Positions 6,275 through 62,073 of a stretch of DNA of 64,000 nt are shown here, in pieces. The notes beneath the pieces are model-generated. The model worked only from the letters and a program-made list of their open reading frames with translations. It was not told the DNA's origin and did no database searches. The translations under genes and the position numbers were made by a program. Source of the stretch: Escherichia phage vB_EcoM-RPN226; the sequence record OL770073.2. One strand, given 5' to 3'. Numbering within the stretch: the stretch's first letter is position 1; every line of letters begins with the position of its first letter.

Positions 6275-7213
6275 ATGTACAATATTAAATGCCTGACCAA
6301 AAACGAACAAGCTGAAATTGTCAAACTGTATTCAAGCGGTAATTATACCCAACAGGAATTGGCTGATTGGCAAGGTGTATCGGTTGACACAATCCGTCGT
6401 GTTTTGAAAAATGCTGAAGAAGCTGAGCGTTCCAAAGTTACCATTAGCGGTGACATTACAGTTGAAGTTAAGAGTGATGTAGCTATTGCTCCAGTTGCTA
6501 AATCTGACATTATTTGGAATGCATCTAAAAAATTCATTTCAATTACTGTTGATGGCGTAACTTATAACGCAACTCCTAATACTCATTCAAACTTCCAGGA
6601 AATTCTTAATCTGCTTGTTGAAGATAAATTGGAAGAAGCAGCGCAAAAAATTAATGTTCGTCGCGCTGTTGAAAAATATATTTCCGGTGATGTTCGAATT
6701 GAAGGCGGAAGCTTGTTCTATCAAAATATTGAATTGCGGTCTGGTTTAGTTGATCGTATTCTCGATTCGATGGAAAAAGGTGAAAACTTTGAATTTTATT
6801 TTCCGTTCTTGGAAAATCTGTTGGAAAATCCAAGCCAAAAAGCAGTATCTCGACTCTTTGATTTCTTGGTAGCAAACGATATTGAAATTACAGAAGATGG
6901 TTACTTCTATGCTTGGAAAGTAGTTCGCAGCAATTACTTTGACTGTCATTCAAATACTTTTGATAACAGTCCTGGTAAAGTAGTTAAAATGCCACGTACT
7001 CGCGTGAATGACGATGATACACAAACTTGTTCTCGTGGTCTGCATGTGTGTTCTAAATCTTATATTCGTCACTTTGGCAGTTCAACCAGCCGAGTTGTAA
7101 AAGTTAAAGTACATCCTCGCGATGTAGTATCAATTCCGATCGATTACAACGATGCTAAAATGCGTACCTGCCAATACGAAGTAGTTGAAGACGTTACTGA
7201 ACAATTTAAATAA
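6275..7213 (+). CDS. rIIB: rIIB protein
   Basis: 312 aa (T4 rIIB size from memory); synteny. Confidence 0.85.
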   Translation: MYNIKCLTKNEQAEIVKLYSSGNYTQQELADWQGVSVDTIRRVLKNAEEAERSKVTISGDITVEVKSDVAIAPVAKSDIIWNASKKFISITVDGVTYNATPNTHSNFQEILNLLVEDKLEEAAQKINVRRAVEKYISGDVRIEGGSLFYQNIELRSGLVDRILDSMEKGENFEFYFPFLENLLENPSQKAVSRLFDFLVANDIEITEDGYFYAWKVVRSNYFDCHSNTFDNSPGKVVKMPRTRVNDDDTQTCSRGLHVCSKSYIRHFGSSTSRVVKVKVHPRDVVSIPIDYNDAKMRTCQYEVVEDVTEQFK

Positions 7214-7241
7214 GGGCTTCGGCCCTTAACTAAGGAAAATT

Positions 7242-26586: not shown

Positions 26587-27236
26587 TTAAACTCCGCATG
26601 CCTGCTGGTGGTGAAAGATATATTGATGGTAAATCAGTTTATAAATTATACTTAATGATAAAACAACATATGAATGGAAAGTATGATGTAATTAAGTATA
26701 ATTGGTGCATGCGGGTGTCTGATGCCGCTTATCAAAAGCGAAGGGATAAGTATTTTTTCCAGAAGTTATCAGAAAAATATAAATTAAAGGAACTTGCTTT
26801 AATCTTTATAAGCAATCTTGTTGCTAACCAAGATGCTTGGATTGGTGACATCTCTGACGCTGATGCACTTGTGTTTTATCGTGAATATATCGGACGCTTA
26901 AAGCAAATTAAATTTAAGTTTGAAGAAGATATTCGCAACATTTATTATTTTAGTAAAAAAGTTGAAGTTTCTGCTTTTAAAGAAATCTTTGAGTATAATC
27001 CAAAAGTTCAATCAAGTTATATTTTTAAACTACTTCAATCGAATATAATTTCGTTTGAGACGTTTATCTTGCTTGATTCGTTTTTAAATATAATCGATAA
27101 ACATGATGAACAGACTGATAATTTAGTCTGGAATAATTATTCTATAAAGTTAAAGGCTTATAGAAAAATTTTAAATATTGATTCGCAGAAAGCTAAAAGT
27201 GTTTTCATTGAAACTGTGAAATCCTGCAAGTATTAA
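26583..27236 (+). CDS. 59: helicase loader gp59
   Basis: 217 aa; ATGA coupling to gene 33. Confidence 0.85.
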   Translation: MIKLRMPAGGERYIDGKSVYKLYLMIKQHMNGKYDVIKYNWCMRVSDAAYQKRRDKYFFQKLSEKYKLKELALIFISNLVANQDAWIGDISDADALVFYREYIGRLKQIKFKFEEDIRNIYYFSKKVEVSAFKEIFEYNPKVQSSYIFKLLQSNIISFETFILLDSFLNIIDKHDEQTDNLVWNNYSIKLKAYRKILNIDSQKAKSVFIETVKSCKY

Positions 27237-27335
27237 TTGCTTATTATAAATAGATTATAATTATCTCACTGACCAGCTATGAGGTCATACATCGTCATAG
27301 CACCAACTGTTAATTAAATTAAAAAGGAAATAAAA
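27236..27335 (+). promoter_or_regulatory. gene 32 control region: MotA-box middle promoter, late promoter and translational operator pseudoknot
   Basis: TTGCTTA MotA box then TATAAT; TATAAATA at 27245-27252; pseudoknot at 27271-27301 (GACC/GGTC and GCTATGA/TCATAGC); AU-rich tract before the RBS. Confidence 0.7.
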
Positions 27336-28244
27336 ATGTTTAAACGTAAATCTACTGCTGAACTCGCTGCACAAATGGCTAAACTGGCTGGAAATAAAGG
27401 TGGTTTTTCTTCTGAAGATAAAGGCGAGTGGAAACTGAAACTCGATAATGCGGGTAACGGTCAAGCAGTAATTCGTTTTCTTCCGTCTAAAAATGATGAA
27501 CAAGCACCATTCGCAATTCTTGTAAATCATGGTTTCAAGAAAAATGGCAAATGGTATATTGAAACGTGTTCATCTACCCACGGTGATTACGATTCTTGCC
27601 CAGTATGTCAGTACATCAGTAAAAATGATTTGTACAACACTGACAATAAAGAGTATGGTCTTGTTAAACGTAAAACTTCTTACTGGGCTAACATTCTTGT
27701 TGTAAAAGACCCAGCTGCTCCAGAAAATGAAGGTAAAGTATTTAAATATCGTTTCGGTAAGAAAATCTGGGATAAAATCAACGCAATGATTGCAGTTGAT
27801 GTTGAAATGGGTGAAACCCCAGTTGATGTAACTTGTCCGTGGGAAGGTGCTAACTTTGTACTGAAAGTTAAACAAGTTTCTGGTTTTAGTAACTACGACG
27901 AATCTAAATTCCTGAATCAATCTGCGATTCCAAACATTGATGATGAATCTTTCCAGAAAGAACTGTTCGAACAAATGGTTGACCTTTCTGAAATGACTTC
28001 TAAAGATAAATTCAAATCGTTTGAAGAACTGAGCACTAAGTTCAGTCAAGTTATGGGAACTGCTGCTATGGGTGGTGCCGCTGCAACTGCCGCTAAGAAA
28101 GCTGATAAAGTTGCTGATGATTTGGATGCATTCAATGTTGATGACTTCAAAACAAAAACTGAAGATGATTTTATGAGCTCAAGCTCTGGCAGTCCATCTA
28201 GTGCTGATGACACGGACCTGGATGACCTTTTGAATGACCTTTAA
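27336..28244 (+). CDS. 32: single-stranded DNA-binding protein gp32
   Basis: 302 aa; [59 protein letters not shown]...; acidic C-terminus. Confidence 0.95.
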
Positions 28245-29095: not shown

Positions 29096-30479
<1,384 letters not shown>

Positions 30480-31495
30480 TAATTTAGGCCTAGGTATAAG
30501 GTGACTTATACTTGTAATCTATCTAAACGGGGGACCTCTCTAGTAGACAATCCCGTGCTAAATTGTAGGACTACCCTTTAATAAATACTTCTATATAAAA
30601 AGAGGTGTTTATGAAAAGCGGAATTTATCAGATTAAAAACACTTTAAACGGTAAAGTGTATGTTGGAAGTGCTAAAGATTTTGAGAAAAGATGGAAGAGA
30701 CATTTTAAAGACCTTGAAAACGGTGTTCACTCTTCTATAAAATTTCAAAGGTCTTTTAATAAACATGGTAATGTTTTTGAATGCTCTGTACTGGAAGAAA
30801 TTCCATATGAGAAAGATTTGATTATTGAACGAGAAAATTTTTGGATTAAAGAGCTAAATTCTAAAATTAATGGATATAATATTGCTGATGCGTCTTTTGG
30901 CGATGTGCTTTCAAATCATCCATTAAAAGAAGAAATTGCTAAGAAACGAGCTGAAACTGTTAAAGCTAAGATGCTTAAGCTTGGTCCTGATGGTCGGAAA
31001 GCTCTTTATGGTAAACACGGAAGTAAAAATGGCCGATGGAATCCAGAAAACCACAAGTTTTGTAAATGCGGTGTTCGCATACCATCTTCGGCTGATACTT
31101 GTGGAAAGTGCCGAAAACGTTCAGGTGAAAATAACCCGTTCTTTAATCACAAACATTCAGAAAAAACTAAAACTAAACTATCTGAAAAGATGAAAGGCAA
31201 AAAGCCAGCTAACATCAAAAAGATTTCATGCGATGGGATTATTTTTGAATGTGCAGCCGATGCGGCTAGACATTTTGAAATTTCATCAGGATTAGTTACT
31301 TACCGTGTAAAATCTGATAAGTGGAATTGGTTCTACATAAATGCCTAACGACTATCCCTTTGGGGAGTAGGGTCAAGTGACTCGAAACGATAGACATCTT
31401 GCTTCATCAAGATGGAGATATAGTCTGATCTGTATGGTGACATGCAGCTGGATATAATTCCGGGATAAGATTAACGACCTTATCTGAACATAATG
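30480..31495 (+). mobile_element. group I self-splicing intron in td (1016 nt) carrying I-TevI
   Basis: begins TAATTTAGGCCTAGGTATAAGGTGACTTATAC...; 3' end ...GAACATAATG; exon frames join to give a 286-aa TS. Confidence 0.9.
30611..31348 (+). CDS. intron-encoded GIY-YIG homing endonuclease I-TevI
   Basis: 245 aa; [38 protein letters not shown]... with zinc-finger linker and C-terminal DNA-binding domain. Confidence 0.9.
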   Translation: MKSGIYQIKNTLNGKVYVGSAKDFEKRWKRHFKDLENGVHSSIKFQRSFNKHGNVFECSVLEEIPYEKDLIIERENFWIKELNSKINGYNIADASFGDVLSNHPLKEEIAKKRAETVKAKMLKLGPDGRKALYGKHGSKNGRWNPENHKFCKCGVRIPSSADTCGKCRKRSGENNPFFNHKHSEKTKTKLSEKMKGKKPANIKKISCDGIIFECAADAARHFEISSGLVTYRVKSDKWNWFYINA

Positions 31496-31807
31496 CTTCC
31501 ATTCAACATTGCATCATATGCTGCGTTGGCTCATATTGTAGCTAAGATGTGTAATCTTATTCCAGGAGATTTGATATTTTCTGGCGGTAATACTCATATC
31601 TATATGAATCACGTAGAACAATGTAAAGAAATTTTGCGTCGTGAACCTAAAGAGCTTTGTGAACTGGTAATAGGCGGATTGCCTTATAAATTCCGCTATC
31701 TTTCTACTAAAGAACAATTGGAATACATTCTTAAACTCAGGCCTAAAGATTTCGTTCTTAAAGGTTACGAATCACACCCTCCTATTAAAGGAAAAATGGC
31801 GGTGTAA
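31496..31807 (+). CDS. td: thymidylate synthase, exon 2
   Basis: LPFNIASYAALAHIVAKMCNLIPGDLIFSGGNTHIYMNHVEQ... in frame with exon 1 after intron removal. Confidence 0.9.
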   Translation, partial: LPFNIASYAALAHIVAKMCNLIPGDLIFSGGNTHIYMNHVEQCKEILRREPKELCELVIGGLPYKFRYLSTKEQLEYILKLRPKDFVLKGYESHPPIKGKMAV

Positions 31808-31830
31808 TTAATTATTAATTGTGAGGATAT

Positions 31831-32076
31831 ATGATTTTACGATTTAAGGATACTTCTGGTGTCGTTCTTTTTACACTTCCTAACCCAAGTGAGTTAGAAG
31901 TTCCAGGACCAAATCAGCCTATTATCATTTATGGCAAAAAATATTATACTCATAAAATGACCCGTGAGTATTTTGATAATAAAATTTCCACAGTTAAAAC
32001 TTCTTCTGATTGCTACTATGATATTACTGTTTTAACGGAACAACAATATGACGAATGTAGAACTTTAGCAGTATAA
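31831..32076 (+). CDS. hypothetical protein
   Basis: 81-aa ORF; 3' end overlaps the convergent GIY-YIG gene by 12 nt. Confidence 0.45.
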
Positions 32077-32796
32077 ATATGATTCCCAACAATCTAGAGC
32101 ACATCTTTTAGATATAAGTTTTCTGCTTATTCCGGTTTGACGCACAGCTTCTGCTATTGTTGGATATTCTACCCCATCTATACTTACTCTTAGATGGGGT
32201 TTCTTTTTACCTCTTTGTGAGTCAGAAATTCGTTTTCTAACTTCATTGGTATGTGTCTGTCCATAATATGGATTATTGATGCCTTTCATATTAAGTGCAG
32301 CGTTTCTTTCTTGGAACTTTTTGCTTATTTCTATAGCACGATCTAACCCATAGTGTTCTTCTATAGTTTTACCTTTAATATCTTTAGGTCTACCATGTTT
32401 TTGCTTAAGTTCTTCTGGTGATAATTTTGAATTATTATTTTTAATTGCATTTGAAATTTTATTAAGGATTTCTTGCTTTCTTGGGTGATGAGATAAGGTA
32501 TCCCCAAACGATGCGTCTGCTATATTATACCCATTTTCCTTTGAGTCATATTCATGTATCCAATAATTTTCACGTTCAATAATGATAGATTTTTCGTATG
32601 GAAGTTCTTCTATGATTTTACATACGAAAGCATCTTTCCCATGCTTATTATAAGAACGTTGCAGCTTTATTGAATGATGATTTCCATTATCTAAATCTTT
32701 GAAGTGTCGTTTCCATCGTTCTTCAAAATTAATTGCACTTCCTATATAGTGCTTATTGGTTTTAGTGTTTATAATAGCATATATTCCAGATTTCAT
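32065..32796 (-). CDS. free-standing GIY-YIG homing endonuclease, I-TevI paralog
   Basis: 243 aa; first ~110 residues closely parallel I-TevI ([38 protein letters not shown]...[12 protein letters not shown]); minus-strand TATAAATA plus AGGAG RBS upstream. Confidence 0.85.
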
Positions 32797-32818
32797 TATA
32801 TTCTCCTATATAAAATTA

Positions 32819-32826
32819 TATTTATA
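32819..32826 (-). promoter_or_regulatory. T4 late promoter (TATAAATA) for the antisense GIY-YIG gene
   Basis: minus strand reads CCCATATAAATATAATTTTATATAGGAGAATATA-ATG. Confidence 0.6.
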
Positions 32827-32851
32827 TGGGGTAACTTACTACAGAGGACTT

Positions 32852-34285
32852 ATGCAATTAATTAATGTTATCAAAAGTAGTGGTGTTTCTCAGAGCTTTG
32901 ACCCGCAAAAAATTATTAAAGTTTTATCTTGGGCAGCTGAAGGAACATCTGTAGATCCTTATGAATTATATGAAAATATTAAATCATATCTCCGTGATGG
33001 AATGACAACTGATGACATTCAGACTATTGTCATTAAGGCTGCTGCGAATTCTATTTCAGTTGAAGAGCCTGATTATCAATATGTAGCTGCACGCTGTTTA
33101 ATGTTCGCTCTTCGTAAGCATGTTTACGGGCAATATGAGCCCCGTTCATTTATTGACCATATTTCTTACTGTGTAAATGAAGGTAAATATGACCCTGAAC
33201 TGCTGTCAAAATATTCAGCAGAAGAAATTACATTTTTAGAATCAAAAATTAAGCACGAGCGGGATATGGAATTTACTTATTCCGGGGCGATGCAATTAAA
33301 AGAAAAATATCTCGTTAAAGATAAAACCACTGGTCAAATTTATGAAACTCCGCAGTTTGCATTTATGACTATTGGAATGGCATTGCATCAAGATGAACCT
33401 GTTGACAGATTAAAACATGTTATTCGTTTTTATGAAGCAGTATCTACTCGACAGATTTCACTGCCAACTCCTATTATGGCTGGATGTCGTACTCCAACTC
33501 GACAGTTTAGTTCATGCGTTGTTATTGAAGCAGGTGATTCGCTGAAGTCTATCAATAAGGCTTCTGCTTCAATTGTTGAGTATATTTCTAAACGAGCTGG
33601 AATTGGTATTAACGTTGGTATGATTCGTGCCGAAGGTTCTAAGATTGGCACAGGTGAAGTGCGTCATACTGGTGTTATTCCTTTTTGGAAACATTTTCAG
33701 ACTGCTGTTAAATCATGTTCACAGGGCGGAATTCGTGGCGGCGCTGCTACTGCTTATTATCCTATTTGGCATTTGGAAGTTGAAAATCTTCTCGTTTTGA
33801 AAAATAACAAAGGCGTAGAAGAAAACCGTATCCGTCATATGGATTATGGTGTTCAGCTGAATGACCTAATGATGGAACGATTCGGAAAGAACGATTACAT
33901 TACTTTGTTTAGTCCGCATGAAATGGGTGGCGAACTTTATTATTCTTATTTTAAAGACCAAGACCGCTTCCGTGAATTGTACGAAGCTGCAGAAAAAGAC
34001 CCTAATATTCGTAAAAAGCGTATTAAAGCGCGTGAACTGTTTGAACTACTCATGACTGAACGATCAGGAACAGCGAGGATTTATGTACAGTTCATTGATA
34101 ATACGAATAACTATACTCCATTTATTCGTGAAAAGGCACCTATTCGTCAGAGTAACTTGTGCTGTGAAATTGCTATTCCAACAAATGATGTGAATAGCCA
34201 ACAAACCCGTTTAATCAAAATTAAGAAGTCGGATGTAGCTAAGTTTTATGAAGTTAATCCTGGCGGTATAATTCAAAGCAAATAA
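32852..34285 (+). CDS. nrdA: ribonucleotide reductase alpha subunit, N-terminal fragment (NrdA-a)
   Basis: 477 aa from MQLINVIKSSG...; NrdA similarity through ...IRQSNLCCEIAIPTNDVNS, then 27 unrelated residues and a stop. Confidence 0.8.
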   Translation: MQLINVIKSSGVSQSFDPQKIIKVLSWAAEGTSVDPYELYENIKSYLRDGMTTDDIQTIVIKAAANSISVEEPDYQYVAARCLMFALRKHVYGQYEPRSFIDHISYCVNEGKYDPELLSKYSAEEITFLESKIKHERDMEFTYSGAMQLKEKYLVKDKTTGQIYETPQFAFMTIGMALHQDEPVDRLKHVIRFYEAVSTRQISLPTPIMAGCRTPTRQFSSCVVIEAGDSLKSINKASASIVEYISKRAGIGINVGMIRAEGSKIGTGEVRHTGVIPFWKHFQTAVKSCSQGGIRGGAATAYYPIWHLEVENLLVLKNNKGVEENRIRHMDYGVQLNDLMMERFGKNDYITLFSPHEMGGELYYSYFKDQDRFRELYEAAEKDPNIRKKRIKARELFELLMTERSGTARIYVQFIDNTNNYTPFIREKAPIRQSNLCCEIAIPTNDVNSQQTRLIKIKKSDVAKFYEVNPGGIIQSK

Positions 34286-34330
34286 AGTACACAGACCGTT
34301 AATAAATAATCCATAACAAGAGGAAAAGTT

Positions 34331-35041
34331 ATGGATTATTCTAAAATTTACAATAACCTTATTTCTAAAGCTAAGAACAGAAAATTAGATTGCTATACCG
34401 AATCACACCATATTATACCTCTGTGTATTGGTGGTTCTGATACAAAGGAAAACCTGGCAGATTTGACACCCGAAGAGCATTATATAGCTCATCAATTATT
34501 AGTAAAGATATATCCAGATAATCATAAATTGGTATTTGCCGCTAATATGATGTGTGTGTATTCTGAAGATAATATTGAACGAAAGAACACCAATAAACGC
34601 CATGGGTGGCTTAGAAGAAAATTGGCTATTTCTGTATCTGAAAATAATAAAGGCAAACCAGCTTGGAACAAAGGTATTCCGGTAACTGACGAGCATAGAG
34701 AAAAACTTCAAACAACTTGGGTATTTACTTTCCCGGACGGTCATGAAGAAATCCATAAAGGCCTAAGAGAATTTTGCGAACTACATTCACTCAATGCTTC
34801 GGCAATGTCGGCCGTATGCAAAGGCAAAAGGTCTCAACATAAAGGCTTTAAGTGTCGAAAGTTTGATAATATCTCTGAAAACGATAATCAAGAATACGTC
34901 AGTAAACCTCATCCAAAGGGATTAAAACCCCATAACTTAATTGCTGTAAAAATAAACGGTATAGAATATCAATCAATACATCGAGCATCTAAAGCTCTAG
35001 GAATATCTCGAAAAAAGGTAGAAGAATTAAATGAATATTGA
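34331..35041 (+). CDS. HNH homing endonuclease (Mob-like) inserted within nrdA
   Basis: 236 aa; HNH motif ...YTESHHIIPLCIGGSDTKENLADLTPEEHYIAHQLL; own RBS AAGAGGAAAA; AATAAATA late-promoter-like motif upstream. Confidence 0.8.
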   Translation: MDYSKIYNNLISKAKNRKLDCYTESHHIIPLCIGGSDTKENLADLTPEEHYIAHQLLVKIYPDNHKLVFAANMMCVYSEDNIERKNTNKRHGWLRRKLAISVSENNKGKPAWNKGIPVTDEHREKLQTTWVFTFPDGHEEIHKGLREFCELHSLNASAMSAVCKGKRSQHKGFKCRKFDNISENDNQEYVSKPHPKGLKPHNLIAVKINGIEYQSIHRASKALGISRKKVEELNEY

Positions 35042-36020
35042 TTATGAATTTGTAGATGAATTTTACGAAGATGATGAGTATACAACAATACAAGTTATTG
35101 AAAACAAAGGTGAAGTGGGCCTTTGTACCCTTAGCGCATTTGTGCTGGATAACTTCGATTGGCAAGACCAAGATAAAATCAACGAATTAGCAGAAGTTCA
35201 AGTTCGTGCTCTTGATAATCTTTTGGATTACCAAGGATATCCAGTTCCTGAAGCAGAAAAAGCTAAAAAGCGTCGAAACCTTGGCGTAGGTGTTACTAAC
35301 TATGCAGCTTGGCTGGCAAGTAACTTTGCTTCTTATGAAGATGCTAACGATTTAACACATGAACTATTTGAGAGATTACAGTATGGACTCATTAAAGCAT
35401 CCATTAAGCTCGCCAAAGAAAAAGGACCTTGCGAATATTATTCAGACACTCGTTGGTCTCGAGGCGAATTACCTATCGACTGGTACAATAAAAAGATTGA
35501 CCAAATCGCAGCTCCAAAATACGTTTGTGACTGGTCGTCGCTGCGGGAAGACCTTAAGCTCTTTGGCATCCGTAATAGCACATTATCAGCACTTATGCCA
35601 TGTGAGTCATCTTCCCAAGTTTCTAACAGTACAAACGGTATCGAGCCTCCACGTGGACCAGTCTCTGTTAAAGAATCAAAAGAGGGTTCCTTTAATCAAG
35701 TCGTGCCCAATATTGAGCATAACATAGACCTCTATGATTATACGTGGAAATTAGCTAAGAAAGGTAATAAACCTTATCTTACGCAGGTAGCTATTATGCT
35801 GAAATGGGTATGTCAATCAGCTTCAGCGAATACATATTATGACCCGCAGATTTTTCCAAAAGGAAAGGTTCCAATGTCTGTAATGATTGATGACATGCTA
35901 TACGGATGGTATTATGGCATTAAAAACTTCTATTATCATAATACCCGCGATGGTTCTGGTACTGATGATTATGAAATAGAAACTCCAAAAGCTGAAGATT
36001 GTTCATCCTGTAAATTATGA
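35031..36020 (+). CDS. nrdA: ribonucleotide reductase alpha subunit, C-terminal fragment (NrdA-b)
   Basis: 329 aa; own ATG and AAGG RBS inside the HNH 3' end; 26-aa acidic leader then ...GEVGLCTLSAF... to C-terminal ...CSSCKL. Confidence 0.8.
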   Translation: MNIDYEFVDEFYEDDEYTTIQVIENKGEVGLCTLSAFVLDNFDWQDQDKINELAEVQVRALDNLLDYQGYPVPEAEKAKKRRNLGVGVTNYAAWLASNFASYEDANDLTHELFERLQYGLIKASIKLAKEKGPCEYYSDTRWSRGELPIDWYNKKIDQIAAPKYVCDWSSLREDLKLFGIRNSTLSALMPCESSSQVSNSTNGIEPPRGPVSVKESKEGSFNQVVPNIEHNIDLYDYTWKLAKKGNKPYLTQVAIMLKWVCQSASANTYYDPQIFPKGKVPMSVMIDDMLYGWYYGIKNFYYHNTRDGSGTDDYEIETPKAEDCSSCKL

Positions 36021-36071
36021 TATAATTTGACTCACGGACGAGTCACTATCTATTAACTAAGCGGAAAATTT

Positions 36072-37250
36072 ATGAGCACAGTTTTTAATACAAATCCAGT
36101 TGATGTTTTAAAAGAACCTATGTTCTTCGGTTCAGGTCTTGGTATTGCGCGTTATGATATTCAACGCCATAAAGTTTTTGAAGATTTAACCGAAAAGCAA
36201 TTATCATTTTTCTGGCGTCCTGAAGAAGTAAACTTGATGATGGATGCTGCACAATTTAACAAGCTTCCTCAGTATCAGCAAGATATTTTTACTAATAACC
36301 TGAAATATCAATCACTTCTGGATAGTATCCAGGGTCGTGCACCGTCTGCTGTACTTATGTCATTAATTTCAGACCCAAGTCTTGATACATGGGTTGCTAC
36401 ATGGACTTTTAGTGAAACTATTCACAGTCGTTCATATACTCATATCATGCGAAATCTTTATACTGATCCATCGAAGGTATTTGATGAGATTGTACTAGAT
36501 GAAGCTATCATGAAACGTGCTGAATCTATCGGTCGCTATTATGATGATGTTCTGACTAAAACCCGTGAATGGGAAAATGCTAAAGAATTTACAGAACTAG
36601 CTAAAGAATCTCCTGATGCTGTTTTTCGTTTAAATCGAGCTATTAAACAAGAAGCCGAAGCTAAACGAGCACTAATGAAATCTCTTTACCTCTGCCTGCA
36701 CGTAATCAACGCATTGGAAGCTATTCGTTTTTATGTATCTTTCGCATGCACCTTTAACTTCCATAAGAACATGGAAATCATGGAAGGTAATGCCAAGATT
36801 ATGAAGTTCATTGCACGTGATGAGCAGCTTCACCTTAAAGGCACCCAATATATTATTCGTCAACTTCAACTTGGCACTGATGGTGATGAATGGGTTAAAA
36901 TCGCCCAAGAGTGTGAACAAGAAGCAGTTGATATTTTCATGGAAGTTAATCGCCAAGAAAAAGATTGGGCAGTTCATTTATTTAAAGATGGCGATGTTCC
37001 TGGATTAAATACAAATAGCATGTGGAGCTTTATTGATTACTTAACTGTATCTCGTATGAAACAGTGCGGTCTTCCATGCCCAATTACTGATGCTCCGGTT
37101 AAACATCCGTATCCTTGGATTCGTGAATATCTTAATTCTGATAATGTTCAATCCGCGCCACAAGAAGTAGAACTGTCATCTTACCTTGTAGCACAGATTG
37201 ATAATGATGTTGATGATAAAGTTATGATGAGTTTTAAAAAATATTTTTAA
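36072..37250 (+). CDS. nrdB: ribonucleotide reductase beta subunit, intronless
   Basis: 392-aa continuous ORF with R2 ferritin-like fold. Confidence 0.9.
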   Translation: MSTVFNTNPVDVLKEPMFFGSGLGIARYDIQRHKVFEDLTEKQLSFFWRPEEVNLMMDAAQFNKLPQYQQDIFTNNLKYQSLLDSIQGRAPSAVLMSLISDPSLDTWVATWTFSETIHSRSYTHIMRNLYTDPSKVFDEIVLDEAIMKRAESIGRYYDDVLTKTREWENAKEFTELAKESPDAVFRLNRAIKQEAEAKRALMKSLYLCLHVINALEAIRFYVSFACTFNFHKNMEIMEGNAKIMKFIARDEQLHLKGTQYIIRQLQLGTDGDEWVKIAQECEQEAVDIFMEVNRQEKDWAVHLFKDGDVPGLNTNSMWSFIDYLTVSRMKQCGLPCPITDAPVKHPYPWIREYLNSDNVQSAPQEVELSSYLVAQIDNDVDDKVMMSFKKYF

Positions 37251-37277
37251 GGAGTGGGCCGCAAGGCCCATTTTATT

Positions 37278-38865
<1,588 letters not shown>

Positions 38866-59616: not shown

Positions 59617-59859
59617 TTAAAAGCTTTCTTCTACTTCATCGTCTGAATCTTCTAATTCAGCTCTTTTTCCTGCCAAAGCATCTCTCACAGAGATGTCATC
59701 AGTATCTTTTAATTCAGTTTCTTTAACTCTTTTCTTGTAATAAGCTTCAAGTTCTTCTAGACCTTCTAATGTTTGACAAGAGGCAATTTTACCCATAAAT
59801 TCATCAATAGAAGCTTCATAAAGAAATTGTTTAAATTTTAGTAACATCTTTTTCTCCAA
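59617..59859 (-). CDS. hypothetical acidic protein (uvsW.1 position)
   Basis: 80-aa ORF. Confidence 0.5.
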   Translation of the reverse strand: MEKKMLLKFKQFLYEASIDEFMGKIASCQTLEGLEELEAYYKKRVKETELKDTDDISVRDALAGKRAELEDSDDEVEESF

Positions 59860-59872
59860 AGGGCCGGAGCCC

Positions 59873-60565
59873 TTATAAATTAACTGTTTTTCTAAGTATT
59901 CTTAGTTTGTACATTGATAATCCAGTAGCTTTAGAAGCATCTTTCATGCATTTATACTTAACACCATTTACTTCTATAGGTTTAGCAGCTGGGTTATTAG
60001 CTCCTGAATTATCTGGCATGTTATCTTTAATTTTCTGAATAGATTTAGCGGAATGTTTCCTTCCGTACATGCCGTTATTTTTACCCGATTGATTGATCGA
60101 ATGTAATCTTTTAGCTTCTTCAGTCCATTTCGTTGGGTTCATTCTTTTAGTTTTACTAATTTTATTTCCCCATGTAATTGGACGACTTTTCATGAGTTTT
60201 GACATATATTGTTTATGTTCTTCCGTATGGTGTTTTCCGTAAAATGGATTACCTTCGCCGGATTGAAGTTCTGCCATTTTACGACGTTCCCATGCGTAAG
60301 ATTTATTGACGTGTCTTTCATGAGTATTTGAATTCATTCCCATACATATAACGGCTTTAATTATACCGTAATGGTTTGGATGAATTTTAGCTAAAAGTTT
60401 ATGGGCTATAAAATGTTCTTCAGCCGTTAGTTCTACTAAATTACACTTATCATTTGTACCACCCATGCATCTAGGAATTATATGATGAGTTTCAGTGTAT
60501 CCATTAAGGCGAGCCCGATTCTGGGCTCTATTAATTAAATTATCATATATTAATTTATAATTCAA
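59873..60565 (-). CDS. HNH homing endonuclease (Mob-like), free-standing
   Basis: 230 aa; HNH motif ...YTETHHIIPRCMGGTNDKCNLVELTAEEHFIAHKLL; paralog of the nrdA-inserted HNH; start codon abuts the uvsW stop. Confidence 0.8.
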   Translation of the reverse strand: MNYKLIYDNLINRAQNRARLNGYTETHHIIPRCMGGTNDKCNLVELTAEEHFIAHKLLAKIHPNHYGIIKAVICMGMNSNTHERHVNKSYAWERRKMAELQSGEGNPFYGKHHTEEHKQYMSKLMKSRPITWGNKISKTKRMNPTKWTEEAKRLHSINQSGKNNGMYGRKHSAKSIQKIKDNMPDNSGANNPAAKPIEVNGVKYKCMKDASKATGLSMYKLRILRKTVNL

Positions 60566-62073
60566 AGTTTAACCTCTTTCATCACATAATTGAACTTCTC
60601 ATCAGCATAACGCTGAATACGATCAAGTCCATGTTTTAAAAGATAGTTTAAATGCGAGTATTTTTTAGAAGATGTTTTTGATTTAGAAACTACGCCCGCG
60701 TCATCTATGAGGTCCCAGACCGTTGCTATTGTCTTAGAACCATGCTTACGTAATACGCGACCTATTGTTTGCAATACAATAATTTTAGATTTAACGCCGT
60801 GCGCTAAAACAACATGATGCAGATTTTTAACTGAAATACCAGTAGAAAATACACCATAACTAGCTACTATAATTATTCCTTTACCGTTTTCAGCTAGGGT
60901 TTTCATTACGTTGCGTGTTTCGGTATCAACTTCCCCTGATACGTAATAAACTTTATCGTATTCATTTTTAATTAAATCGAAAATAGCTTTACCGTGCGAT
61001 ACGTGTTTAAACATGACAAAAGCGTTTTCATCTTTTTGTGCAAGTTTAATAGCTAATTTAGCGATCCATTTATTTCTTTTACTGAGCCCAGTAATAATTT
61101 TTATTTCTTCTTGGTAAGTTTTTCCCTTTAATTTAGTAGTGAACTCATCGGGATAGCGAAGAAAAATACTATTAATTTTTAACTCAGTTACTTGTCCATC
61201 TTCCATTAATTTAGAAGTCGTTACTGGCTTAAATATTTCACCAAACATTCCAACATACTGCATGATATTGGCTTTGCCATCGCGTAATGAACCCGATAGA
61301 CCAAATTTGAACATGCAGTTATTTAAACCTGATATGATAGATGAAATACTTTTTCCTGTAGCAAGATGGCATTCATCATTCATCATCATTCCAAACTGTG
61401 AGAACCATTCTTTCGGTTGTTTTACTACAGTTTGCCATGTACCAACAACGACTGGTGCATCATTTTTATATTTATCATCTTTTGATGCTCCACCGCCAAT
61501 TTTCTTTATCATTGTATGACTGAATAAACGATAGTCAACGAAGTCATCAGCCATCTGAGTTGTCAGAGCCGTTGTTGGAACAATGATAAGAATTTTACCT
61601 TCATAATTTTCCAAATAATAACGTGCAAGCAAAGCTTGAATTAAAGATTTACCTGCAGATGTTGGAAGATTAAGAATTCTACGACGATTAACTAATCCTT
61701 CGAACACTGCATCTTTTTGATACCAGTGTGGTTCAATTCTTTTATTTCCTGAATAGATTTCTAATTTAGAAAGCCATTCATCAAAATCTTTTCTTGATAA
61801 TTCTTCTTTTTCGTTAATTTGCGGGTCAATCCAAGCTTTATAGCCAAAGTTATCGCAGAACTTTTTAATTTGCCCGACTAAGCCGAATGGAAGAAGACGA
61901 TTATAATCTAAAAGACGGATTCGTCCATCCCAGTTGCCATATCTGAAGCGAGGATTAAAACGATACCCATCAGCTTCAAAGCTAAAGAAATCACGGAGTT
62001 CATGAAATGTACTTTCTTCACAATCAATTCTCACGTGACTAAAATCATAAAAATGTACTTTAATGTCAGTCAT
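60562..62073 (-). CDS. uvsW: UvsW RNA-DNA and DNA helicase
   Basis: 503 aa; SF2 helicase motifs (PTSAGKS Walker A, DECH box). Confidence 0.9.
   Translation of the reverse strand: MTDIKVHFYDFSHVRIDCEESTFHELRDFFSFEADGYRFNPRFRYGNWDGRIRLLDYNRLLPFGLVGQIKKFCDNFGYKAWIDPQINEKEELSRKDFDEWLSKLEIYSGNKRIEPHWYQKDAVFEGLVNRRRILNLPTSAGKSLIQALLARYYLENYEGKILIIVPTTALTTQMADDFVDYRLFSHTMIKKIGGGASKDDKYKNDAPVVVGTWQTVVKQPKEWFSQFGMMMNDECHLATGKSISSIISGLNNCMFKFGLSGSLRDGKANIMQYVGMFGEIFKPVTTSKLMEDGQVTELKINSIFLRYPDEFTTKLKGKTYQEEIKIITGLSKRNKWIAKLAIKLAQKDENAFVMFKHVSHGKAIFDLIKNEYDKVYYVSGEVDTETRNVMKTLAENGKGIIIVASYGVFSTGISVKNLHHVVLAHGVKSKIIVLQTIGRVLRKHGSKTIATVWDLIDDAGVVSKSKTSSKKYSHLNYLLKHGLDRIQRYADEKFNYVMKEVKL

Follow-up and report, generated by a model that had tools for sequence, protein, structure and literature searches.

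Three homing-endonuclease elements, one of them in an Aeh1-type split nrdA, in the td-nrdA region of Escherichia phage vB_EcoM-RPN226

Aeromonas phage Aeh1 carries a homing-endonuclease gene, mobE, inside its reductase gene nrdA and makes the enzyme from two pieces (Friedrich 2007, Crona 2010). The two NrdA halves are separate mature proteins that retain their terminal tails and form a fully active enzyme, (NrdA-a/NrdA-b)2 NrdB2, whose assembly depends on these tails; the tails have pI values of 10.4 and 3.8, and their deletion lowers activity about 2000-fold (PMC3045599). This split reductase has long been presented as a one-off in a poorly tractable phage, and in 2010 its tails had no database matches. 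More recently, a 2022 preprint stated, citing unpublished data, that "Aeh1 and several others" carry MobE in nrdA with conserved extensions. Here we describe the td-nrdA region of Escherichia phage vB_EcoM-RPN226, a T4-type phage of the genus Tequatrovirus (sequence record OL770073.2; the stretch of 64,000 nucleotides that was analysed is hereafter called the window), in which an orthologous MobE cassette splits nrdA and lies close to an I-TevI gene in a td group I intron and to an antisense, free-standing paralog of I-TevI.

These two neighbors also have described counterparts. The td introns of T4 and phage TuIa share the insertion site, the 1016-nt length, the four-domain I-TevI and the hairpin with embedded late promoter found here, and published work on I-TevI indicates that a translational block acts on early and middle transcripts and is lifted on late ones (PMC2988022). 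The Seg endonucleases of T4 are, like the antisense gene of the window, free-standing GIY-YIG genes that lie between conserved genes and are polymorphic among relatives. Among T4 genes of this type only segD is antisense to its neighbors, and it has no recognised promoter. T4 has a mobE of its own in the same operon, but this gene lies between genes, lacks its own promoter and acts by nicking nrdB, whereas its relative in the window sits inside nrdA and comes with tails. Each component of the locus is thus of a described kind, namely a T4/TuIa td intron, a Seg-like free-standing GIY-YIG gene and an Aeh1-type MobE gene in pieces, and only their combination is new.

We consider it very probable that the td-nrdA region of this phage holds three independent, intact homing-endonuclease elements, each apparently mobile and tuned for late expression with little cost to its host genes. 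Three intact endonuclease genes lie inside 4.6 kb, with the elements spaced 1.4-3.7 kb apart (Table 1). A sequence-only reading of the same DNA had named an intron-borne GIY-YIG gene (I-TevI) in td, an antisense free-standing GIY-YIG gene and an intragenic HNH gene splitting nrdA, and all of these were recovered here: the td exons join into a 286-aa protein around an ORF with four Pfam domains, Pfam identifies the antisense gene at 32065-32796 (-), and the HNH gene at 34331-35041 lies between nrdA halves that align end to end with intact NrdA. The same reading correctly gave nrdB as intronless, unlike that of T4, the empty site being 36747|36748. Our comparisons covered sequence identity, element boundaries, homology, distribution, breakpoints, motifs and folds. 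They extend rather than change current understanding: the nrdA split and its tails are homologous to those of Aeh1, the layout of regulatory elements is described for both cassettes, the antisense cassette is spread across genera, and td bears a clean co-conversion signature.

A split nrdA with Aeh1-type tails

Placed together, the two nrdA halves cover the whole length of NrdA from phage sutha, which is uninterrupted, at 94-96% identity, with the break point between …IPTNDVNS and (PDAEI)GLCTLSAF…; in intact nrdA this loop region carries …AATGATGTGAATAGTCCTGATGCTGAAATTGGATTGTGT…. Compared with sutha, the MobE cassette replaces 34 bp of nrdA and runs from tail codons through a regulatory spacer and mobE to head codons, followed by a foreign version of the NrdA loop. 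The insertion falls between the active-site motifs NLCxEIA (C439/E441) and LCTLSA (C462), the same split as in Aeh1; the relevant cysteine is Cys-32 of NrdA-b here and Cys-31 in Aeh1. The start codon of the gene is the ATG at 32852, and the longer ORF of 509 aa, listed from 32756, is an artefact due to a TTG further upstream.

The endonuclease encoded by the cassette is 47% identical to Aeh1 MobE over 229 aa (E 3e-60), matches the homing endonucleases of PHROG 655 (E 2e-59) and is I-HmuI-like; it belongs to the same HNH family as T4 MobE, the N-terminal halves being ~44% identical. An HNH-type motif (HHIIP, N, H) can be recognised by eye, but no Pfam HNH hit was obtained below E 0.001. As in Aeh1, mobE overlaps nrdA-b (by 11 nt here and 14 in Aeh1) and is preceded by a spacer of 45 nt (46 in Aeh1) with a hairpin over the translation start. 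Among carriers of the cassette there are two mobE alleles, a window/HY01/PEC04 type and an fPS-90/PTE-Eco05 type, which differ mainly at 34581-34880, where identity is 71-88% as against 92-100% elsewhere in the cassette and where protein changes cluster at residues 118-190. A "recoded" target tract downstream of the insertion was considered and rejected, as only the change of GGA TTG to GGS CTY consistently separates alleles that have the cassette from those that do not, and the rest varies among carriers.

The extensions of the two halves are homologous to the basic tail and acidic head of Aeh1, though the tail sequences have diverged. The nrdA-a tail has a pI of 10.0 and shares the motif L[IF]K[IV]KKS[DE]V..F with Aeh1, and the 29-residue extension of nrdA-b (head plus loop copy) has a pI of 4.05 and a charge of -9.5, with the motif YEDDEYTT in place of YEDEEYTT in Aeh1. 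This head motif is also kept in metagenome homologs, even though their NrdA-b bodies are only 53-79% identical. The last 12 residues of the head, TTIQVIENKGEV, resemble the NrdA loop, as in bacterial …DENGEIALC, and may be a second copy of it with a foreign origin. The cassette supplies the basic C-terminal tail to NrdA-a and the acidic N-terminal head to NrdA-b; in Aeh1 both extensions are essential for assembly of the active enzyme. Two metagenome contigs share the nrdA-a/mobE/nrdA-b layout; one of them, L013, has a td ORF of 412 aa rather than 286 (201-1439), and in the other, L011, a further HNH gene (6616-7224) stands between denA and rnlA.

The cassette may also supply hairpin and late-promoter control of mobE. 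The ribosome-binding site of mobE lies in the loop of the hairpin and its ATG in the 3' arm, and a late-promoter-like AATAAATA at 34301-34308 overlaps the 5' arm. Contig L011 preserves this hairpin via two compensatory base-pair changes, and in Aeh1 and contig L013 the position is taken by other, stronger hairpins, with CTAAATA and CATAAATA. The hairpin of the window differs from that of Aeh1 in sequence and in sequestering the ATG rather than the ribosome-binding site. Further differences lie in the host and the setting: the window comes from a Tequatrovirus that infects E. coli, in which the split gene belongs to the canonical td-nrdA-nrdB operon, whereas the Aeh1 nrd operon lies at 40-45 kb of that genome and not beside td.

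The Aeh1 cassette thus recurs, with homologous tails and the same logic of regulation, in a T4-type coliphage and no fewer than 34 sequenced relatives. The sequence-only reading had pointed to the locus as a place to look for unusual gene-expression solutions such as split genes and antisense late transcription; the split gene is now recognizable as an Aeh1-type arrangement in pieces, and the antisense case, taken up below, has found support in the promoter region of the GIY-YIG gene. Because the split cassette is found in a T4-type coliphage, its homing into T4 nrdA and the role of its tails become open to standard T4 genetics.

Two putative routes to late expression: the antisense cassette and the td intron

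The antisense GIY-YIG cassette stands in place of nrdA.1 (a DUF4326 gene) and ends just before the nrdA ribosome-binding site; at its other end, homology to cassette-free phages stops at 32056, and the last 4 codons and stop codon of nrdA.2 come from the cassette. Its product is 45% identical to the I-TevI of the window over the full length (E 3e-70) and roughly two-thirds identical in the catalytic domain, and it matches PDB entries 1mk0 (E 4e-40) and 1i3j (E 3e-7). The catalytic residues Y6, Y17, R27, H31 and H40 and the IERE and GYN motifs are all retained. The zinc finger is not, its four cysteines being missing and the linker having no cysteines at all. I-BmoI, another close relative of I-TevI, likewise has no zinc finger, and we know of no Seg protein that is as near to I-TevI as this paralog.

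On the minus strand the sequence reads …CCCCATATAAATATAATTTTATATAGGAGAATATAATG, in which a perfect late promoter is followed by the ribosome-binding site and then the start codon; the promoter motif TATAAATA lies 22 nt upstream of the ATG, with GGAG between them, and is conserved in sutha and Klebsiella phage KpV477. Folding of the start region gave no hairpin (z 0.46). Since the gene is antisense to td-nrdA transcription, early and middle transcripts could not encode it, and late-only expression would be achieved without a hairpin, the endonuclease being made solely from its own canonical late promoter. This gene shares its antisense orientation with segD, but differs from it in having a clear late promoter of its own, and from T4 Seg genes in replacing nrdA.1 and in being common to Klebsiella Jiaodavirus.

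The plus strand of the cassette carries a second perfect TATAAATA (32072-32079) and MotA-box-like motifs with -10 elements at 32399-32427 and 32747-32775. Of four MotA-box-like motifs of this kind detected over 9 kb, these are two. The plus-strand motifs lie inside coding sequence and are kept in the Klebsiella copies, and that at 32747-32775 is identical in all cassette-bearing phages, KpV477 included. They may substitute for promoters lost with nrdA.1. Once made, the endonuclease probably cuts cassette-free genomes in or near nrdA.1 or the 5' end of nrdA, and repair would then copy the cassette in. It is possible, if still doubtful, that the cassette is a homing element not yet characterised, whose target is new (nrdA.1/DUF4326 or the nrdA start being the likeliest), and that it recently crossed from Klebsiella Jiaodavirus into E. 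coli Tequatrovirus with a bidirectional transcription kit, consisting of a late promoter for itself and embedded middle or late promoters for nrdA. In the literature searched we found no published account of this cassette, which is not proof that none exists. Were this reading of the cassette to hold, the locus would offer, together with the MobE tails, a genetically tractable E. coli system for asking whether such tails are portable "antidotes" by which an endonuclease can invade a coding sequence without an intron or intein.

In td, the two pieces listed as ORFs (29931-30482 and 31493-31807) become, once the exons are joined, an intact 286-aa thymidylate synthase colinear with intronless Td. 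The intron is 98.5% identical to the td intron of phage TuIa and 85-95% to that of T4, and so is of the TuIa rather than the T4 type; a further difference from T4 is that exon 1 and frd come from a divergent lineage. All four Pfam domains of I-TevI (GIY-YIG, zinc finger, NUMOD3 and helix-turn-helix DNA-binding) score above their cut-offs, and the ORF starts with the ATG at 30611 rather than with the GTG at 30605. A late-promoter-like AATAAATA lies at 30580-30587, in the 5' arm of the hairpin, an architecture that fits the published regulation of I-TevI (PMC2988022). In this phage splicing would restore td, the hairpin would block I-TevI translation on early and middle transcripts, and late transcripts starting at the embedded promoter, inside the hairpin, would leave translation free. 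Self-splicing and homing of the intron would accord with the mosaic breakpoints at the predicted I-TevI cleavage site and the intron edge (see below), which lend them indirect support. The locus thus presents, side by side, two putative routes to a late-only endonuclease, one through a hairpin with an embedded late promoter and the other through antisense orientation with a canonical late promoter.

Breakpoints, distribution and competing explanations

In a sliding comparison, the divergent phage PTE-Eco05 matches frd (29346-29934) and td exon 1 at 94-99% identity, and other Tequatrovirus match most of the length of this segment at only 67-84%; for exon 1 by itself the values are 94-99% and 72-93%. 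Per-site mismatches give the edges of this segment. Against sutha, dense mismatches cease at 30437-30492, which brackets the predicted I-TevI cleavage site; on the model of T4, we place this site ~25 nt upstream of the intron. Against PTE-Eco05, dense mismatches begin at 31498, two bases into exon 2 and thus at the 3' edge of the intron. The frd and td exon 1 segment (29346-30437) therefore looks like an imported tract that ends at the predicted cleavage site, and td appears to be a clean natural case of exon co-conversion. The same segment is also 94-99% identical to the divergent phage JM17.

The two cassettes are far more conserved than their flanks. Between the window and PTE-Eco05, most of the MobE cassette shows 87-100% identity (one 150-nt bin of mobE shows 71%), as against 75-79% in the flanking nrdA; the antisense cassette is ~91% identical to that of KpV477, and td and nrdA are 72-78% identical between the same phages. 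This fits active homing. Published co-conversion tracts reach ~2 kb (PMC2790892), a range that covers neighboring elements at this locus. Given the spacing of the elements, a cut by one could drag a neighbor along, which would make the region a hotspot of recombination and marker exclusion. The hotspot proposed in the sequence-only reading accordingly fits the population data (breakpoints, and cassettes at 90-99% against flanks at 70-80%), and marker exclusion in mixed infections would be its expected consequence.

Record counts for the three elements were drawn from 50,697 phage records. The td intron occurs in 198 records and the MobE cassette in 34 (for example HY01, PEC04, fPS-90 and vB_EcoM_112). 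The antisense cassette occurs in 26, of which 8 are Tequatrovirus (7 phages, 98-99.9% identity) and 18 Klebsiella Jiaodavirus (90-92%), and it is polymorphic in both genera (8 of about 510 Tequatrovirus and 18/154 Jiaodavirus records); Jiaodavirus without it have a DUF4326 (nrdA.1-like) gene at that site. The sequence-only reading had raised the case of all three elements standing at identical positions in standard T4-like genomes. This is so for the td intron, which has the same position in T4, but the other two are absent from T4 and T2, each occurring at an identical position in the 34 and 26 other records. Most presence/absence combinations occur among sequenced phages: written as intron/antisense/MobE, T4 is +/-/-, sutha +/+/-, ECO07P5 -/+/-, fPS-90 +/-/+ and PEC04 -/-/+. 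No record has all three elements, nor both cassettes together.

Several results weigh against our proposal of three mobile, late-tuned elements. Both copies of AATAAATA, in the I-TevI and the mobE hairpin, are one mismatch from the late-promoter consensus, and the promoter role of the mobE copy is a prediction. Perfect copies of TATAAATA are not enriched in the whole window, a pattern search having found 12 against 9.5 expected. The Rfam Intron_gpI model matches 31217-31447, the 3' half of the td intron, with 35.5 bits (E 3e-6), below its gathering threshold of 50, which we attribute to the ORF splitting the ribozyme core. An I-TevI-style operator search, comparing the promoter region of the antisense gene with cassette-free alleles, gave a best match of 14/20, at or below every shuffled control. 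Finally, independence over about 510 comparable records predicts ~0.2 triple carriers and ~0.5 with both cassettes, so that the novel combination needs no special or cooperative explanation.

Other explanations can be weighed against these data, beginning with the split nrdA. Phage reductase genes are often interrupted by introns and inteins, and the HNH gene might lie in one of these, with splicing at the RNA or protein level joining nrdA again; a degenerate intein was put forward by Crona et al. as a possible origin of the tails, and related phages do use a split intein ~12 codons upstream (proteins P0004, of Yersinia phage vB_YenM_TG1, P0005 and P0011). In such split-intein genes (Dassa 2009) nrdA is also divided near the active-site loop, but the protein is rejoined by trans-splicing, whereas the window has no intein motifs and its halves are presumably separate. 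Even with the cut-off relaxed to E 1, Rfam detected no group I intron around 34198-35135. The reading frame of nrdA-a is closed by a stop codon, and nrdA-b is equipped with a separate ribosome-binding site and start codon (ATG). No Pfam intein profile was matched by the tails at E up to 10, a search that did pick up the P0004 positive control, and profile-profile comparison (hhalign) of the acidic heads with real C-intein halves gave a probability of 0.2%. As the Aeh1 halves are also separate mature proteins with tails kept, we regard splicing as highly improbable. The split intein of the P0004 type, which lies at NL|C and whose C-intein half ends …DILVHN|C (Intein_splicing E 1.6e-4), is a different solution to the same problem. 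It could also be argued that the split nrdA is dead, the phage relying on a host or anaerobic reductase, because the insertion parts the active-site cysteines of NrdA. This is very unlikely in view of two intact halves that closely match uninterrupted NrdA, tails that are kept in homologs with an NrdA body only 50-65% identical, persistence of the split arrangement in 34 records and the full activity of the split Aeh1 enzyme.

A loss of mobility by at least one endonuclease, through domestication (for example of the antisense paralog as a DNA-binding repressor) or as an inert passenger of its neighbors, has precedents in I-TevI, which itself also acts as a repressor, and in T4 I-TevIII, which is defunct and mobilised in trans by MobE (PMC2790892). 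The antisense paralog lacks the zinc finger, which sets the cleavage distance in I-TevI, and the operator search predicted no target for it. Its catalytic residues are nevertheless all kept, and dN/dS over the full length of the three intact ORFs is 0.11-0.21 (0.11 for this paralog, 0.13 for I-TevI against T4 and 0.21 for mobE), indicative of purifying selection. The antisense cassette is moreover 90-92% identical between two genera with flanks at 72-78% and polymorphic in both, and we consider loss of mobility rather unlikely. Nor do we favor the view that the clustering is functional, with the three elements forming a cooperating "island" selected as a unit. The spacing within or near the published co-conversion range would suit it, as would the endonuclease islands described beside essential genes in other phages (PMC10448857), but most of the presence/absence combinations are found among sequenced phages, and the lack of other records with all three elements or both cassettes matches independence. 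Selection as a unit is in our judgment improbable, and we retain three independently mobile elements as the preferred explanation.

Feature coordinates and further observations

Table 1. Positions in the window of features of the td-nrdA-nrdB region.
Feature	Position	Strand	Basis
td exon 1	29931-30479	+	Pfam Thymidylat_synt profile positions 1-175
td group I intron, 1016 nt, TuIa-type, T4 insertion site	30480-31495	+	boundaries set by intronless td of PEC04, ECO07P5
Hairpin over I-TevI ribosome-binding site and start codon	30574-30621	+	fold -16.2 kcal/mol, z -3.3
I-TevI ORF, 245 aa, intact	30611-31348	+	Pfam GIY-YIG, I-TevI_ZnF, NUMOD3, I-TevI_DNA-bd
td exon 2	31496-31807	+	Pfam Thymidylat_synt profile positions 176-266
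nrdA.2 (DUF5496)	31831-32076	+	Pfam DUF5496, E 7e-52
Free-standing GIY-YIG cassette, 780 bp	32064-32843 (about)	-	alignment with fPS-90 (no cassette) and Klebsiella phage KpV477
I-TevI paralog ORF, 243 aa	32065-32796	-	Pfam GIY-YIG, NUMOD3, I-TevI_DNA-bd
MotA-box-like TGCTT, 15 bp, TATAAT, facing nrdA; candidate middle promoter	32747-32775	+	pattern scan
Perfect T4 late-promoter motif TATAAATA	32819-32826	-	sequence reading and pattern search
nrdA-a: N-terminal 449 NrdA residues and 28-residue basic tail	32852-34285	+	alignment to intact NrdA; Pfam ATP-cone, Ribonuc_red_lgN, first half of barrel domain
MobE cassette, 938 bp	34198-35135	+	BLAST against sutha
13-bp hairpin	34305-34340	+	fold -13.8 kcal/mol, z -4.1 to -5.2
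mobE-type HNH endonuclease ORF, 236 aa	34331-35041	+	Aeh1 MobE and PHROG 655 matches
nrdA-b: 17-residue acidic head, 12-residue loop copy, C-terminal 300 NrdA residues	35031-36020	+	alignments
nrdB, continuous, intronless	36072-37250	+	multiple alignment with T4 and PTE-Eco05

The gene order of the window around these features is 59, 32, small ORFs, frd, td, nrdA.2, nrdA, nrdB, denA and rnlA, the small ORFs between 32 and frd being homologous to the T4 frd.1 region. A 22-kb stretch of the window is ~97% identical to many phages of E. coli and Shigella, and in no record does identity over the stretch reach 99% or more. Scans for terminators and sigma-70 promoters gave counts that match shuffled expectation and are thus uninformative.

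Downstream of the split gene, T4 and PTE-Eco05 carry an nrdB intron (a 1091-column insertion in the alignment) at the site that is empty in the window, and no mobE is present between nrdA and nrdB (36020-36072), the position of T4 mobE. Some 80-190 nt upstream of the empty intron site, at 36555-36670, nrdB has a hypervariable, indel-rich patch with at least four allelic types among close relatives, the remaining nrdB being 93-100% identical among them. At the nrdB-denA junction, where a terminator is annotated in fPS-90, a GC-rich hairpin at 37159-37285 has a weak Rfam L20_leader match (E 0.44, well under threshold) that is most likely due to chance.

Two further sites bear on homing endonucleases elsewhere in the window. 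The position of T4 segG, between genes 59 and 32 (27236-27336), is empty. A fourth homing endonuclease, a Mob-type HNH ORF of 230 aa that is 34% identical to the MobE of nrdA, lies at 59873-60565 (-), exactly between uvsW (60562-62073, -) and the small uvsW.1 (59617-59859, -). It occurs in 48 of about 498 related records, and it raises the question of whether the uvsW/uvsW.1 split in T4 could be the scar of such an HNH insertion.

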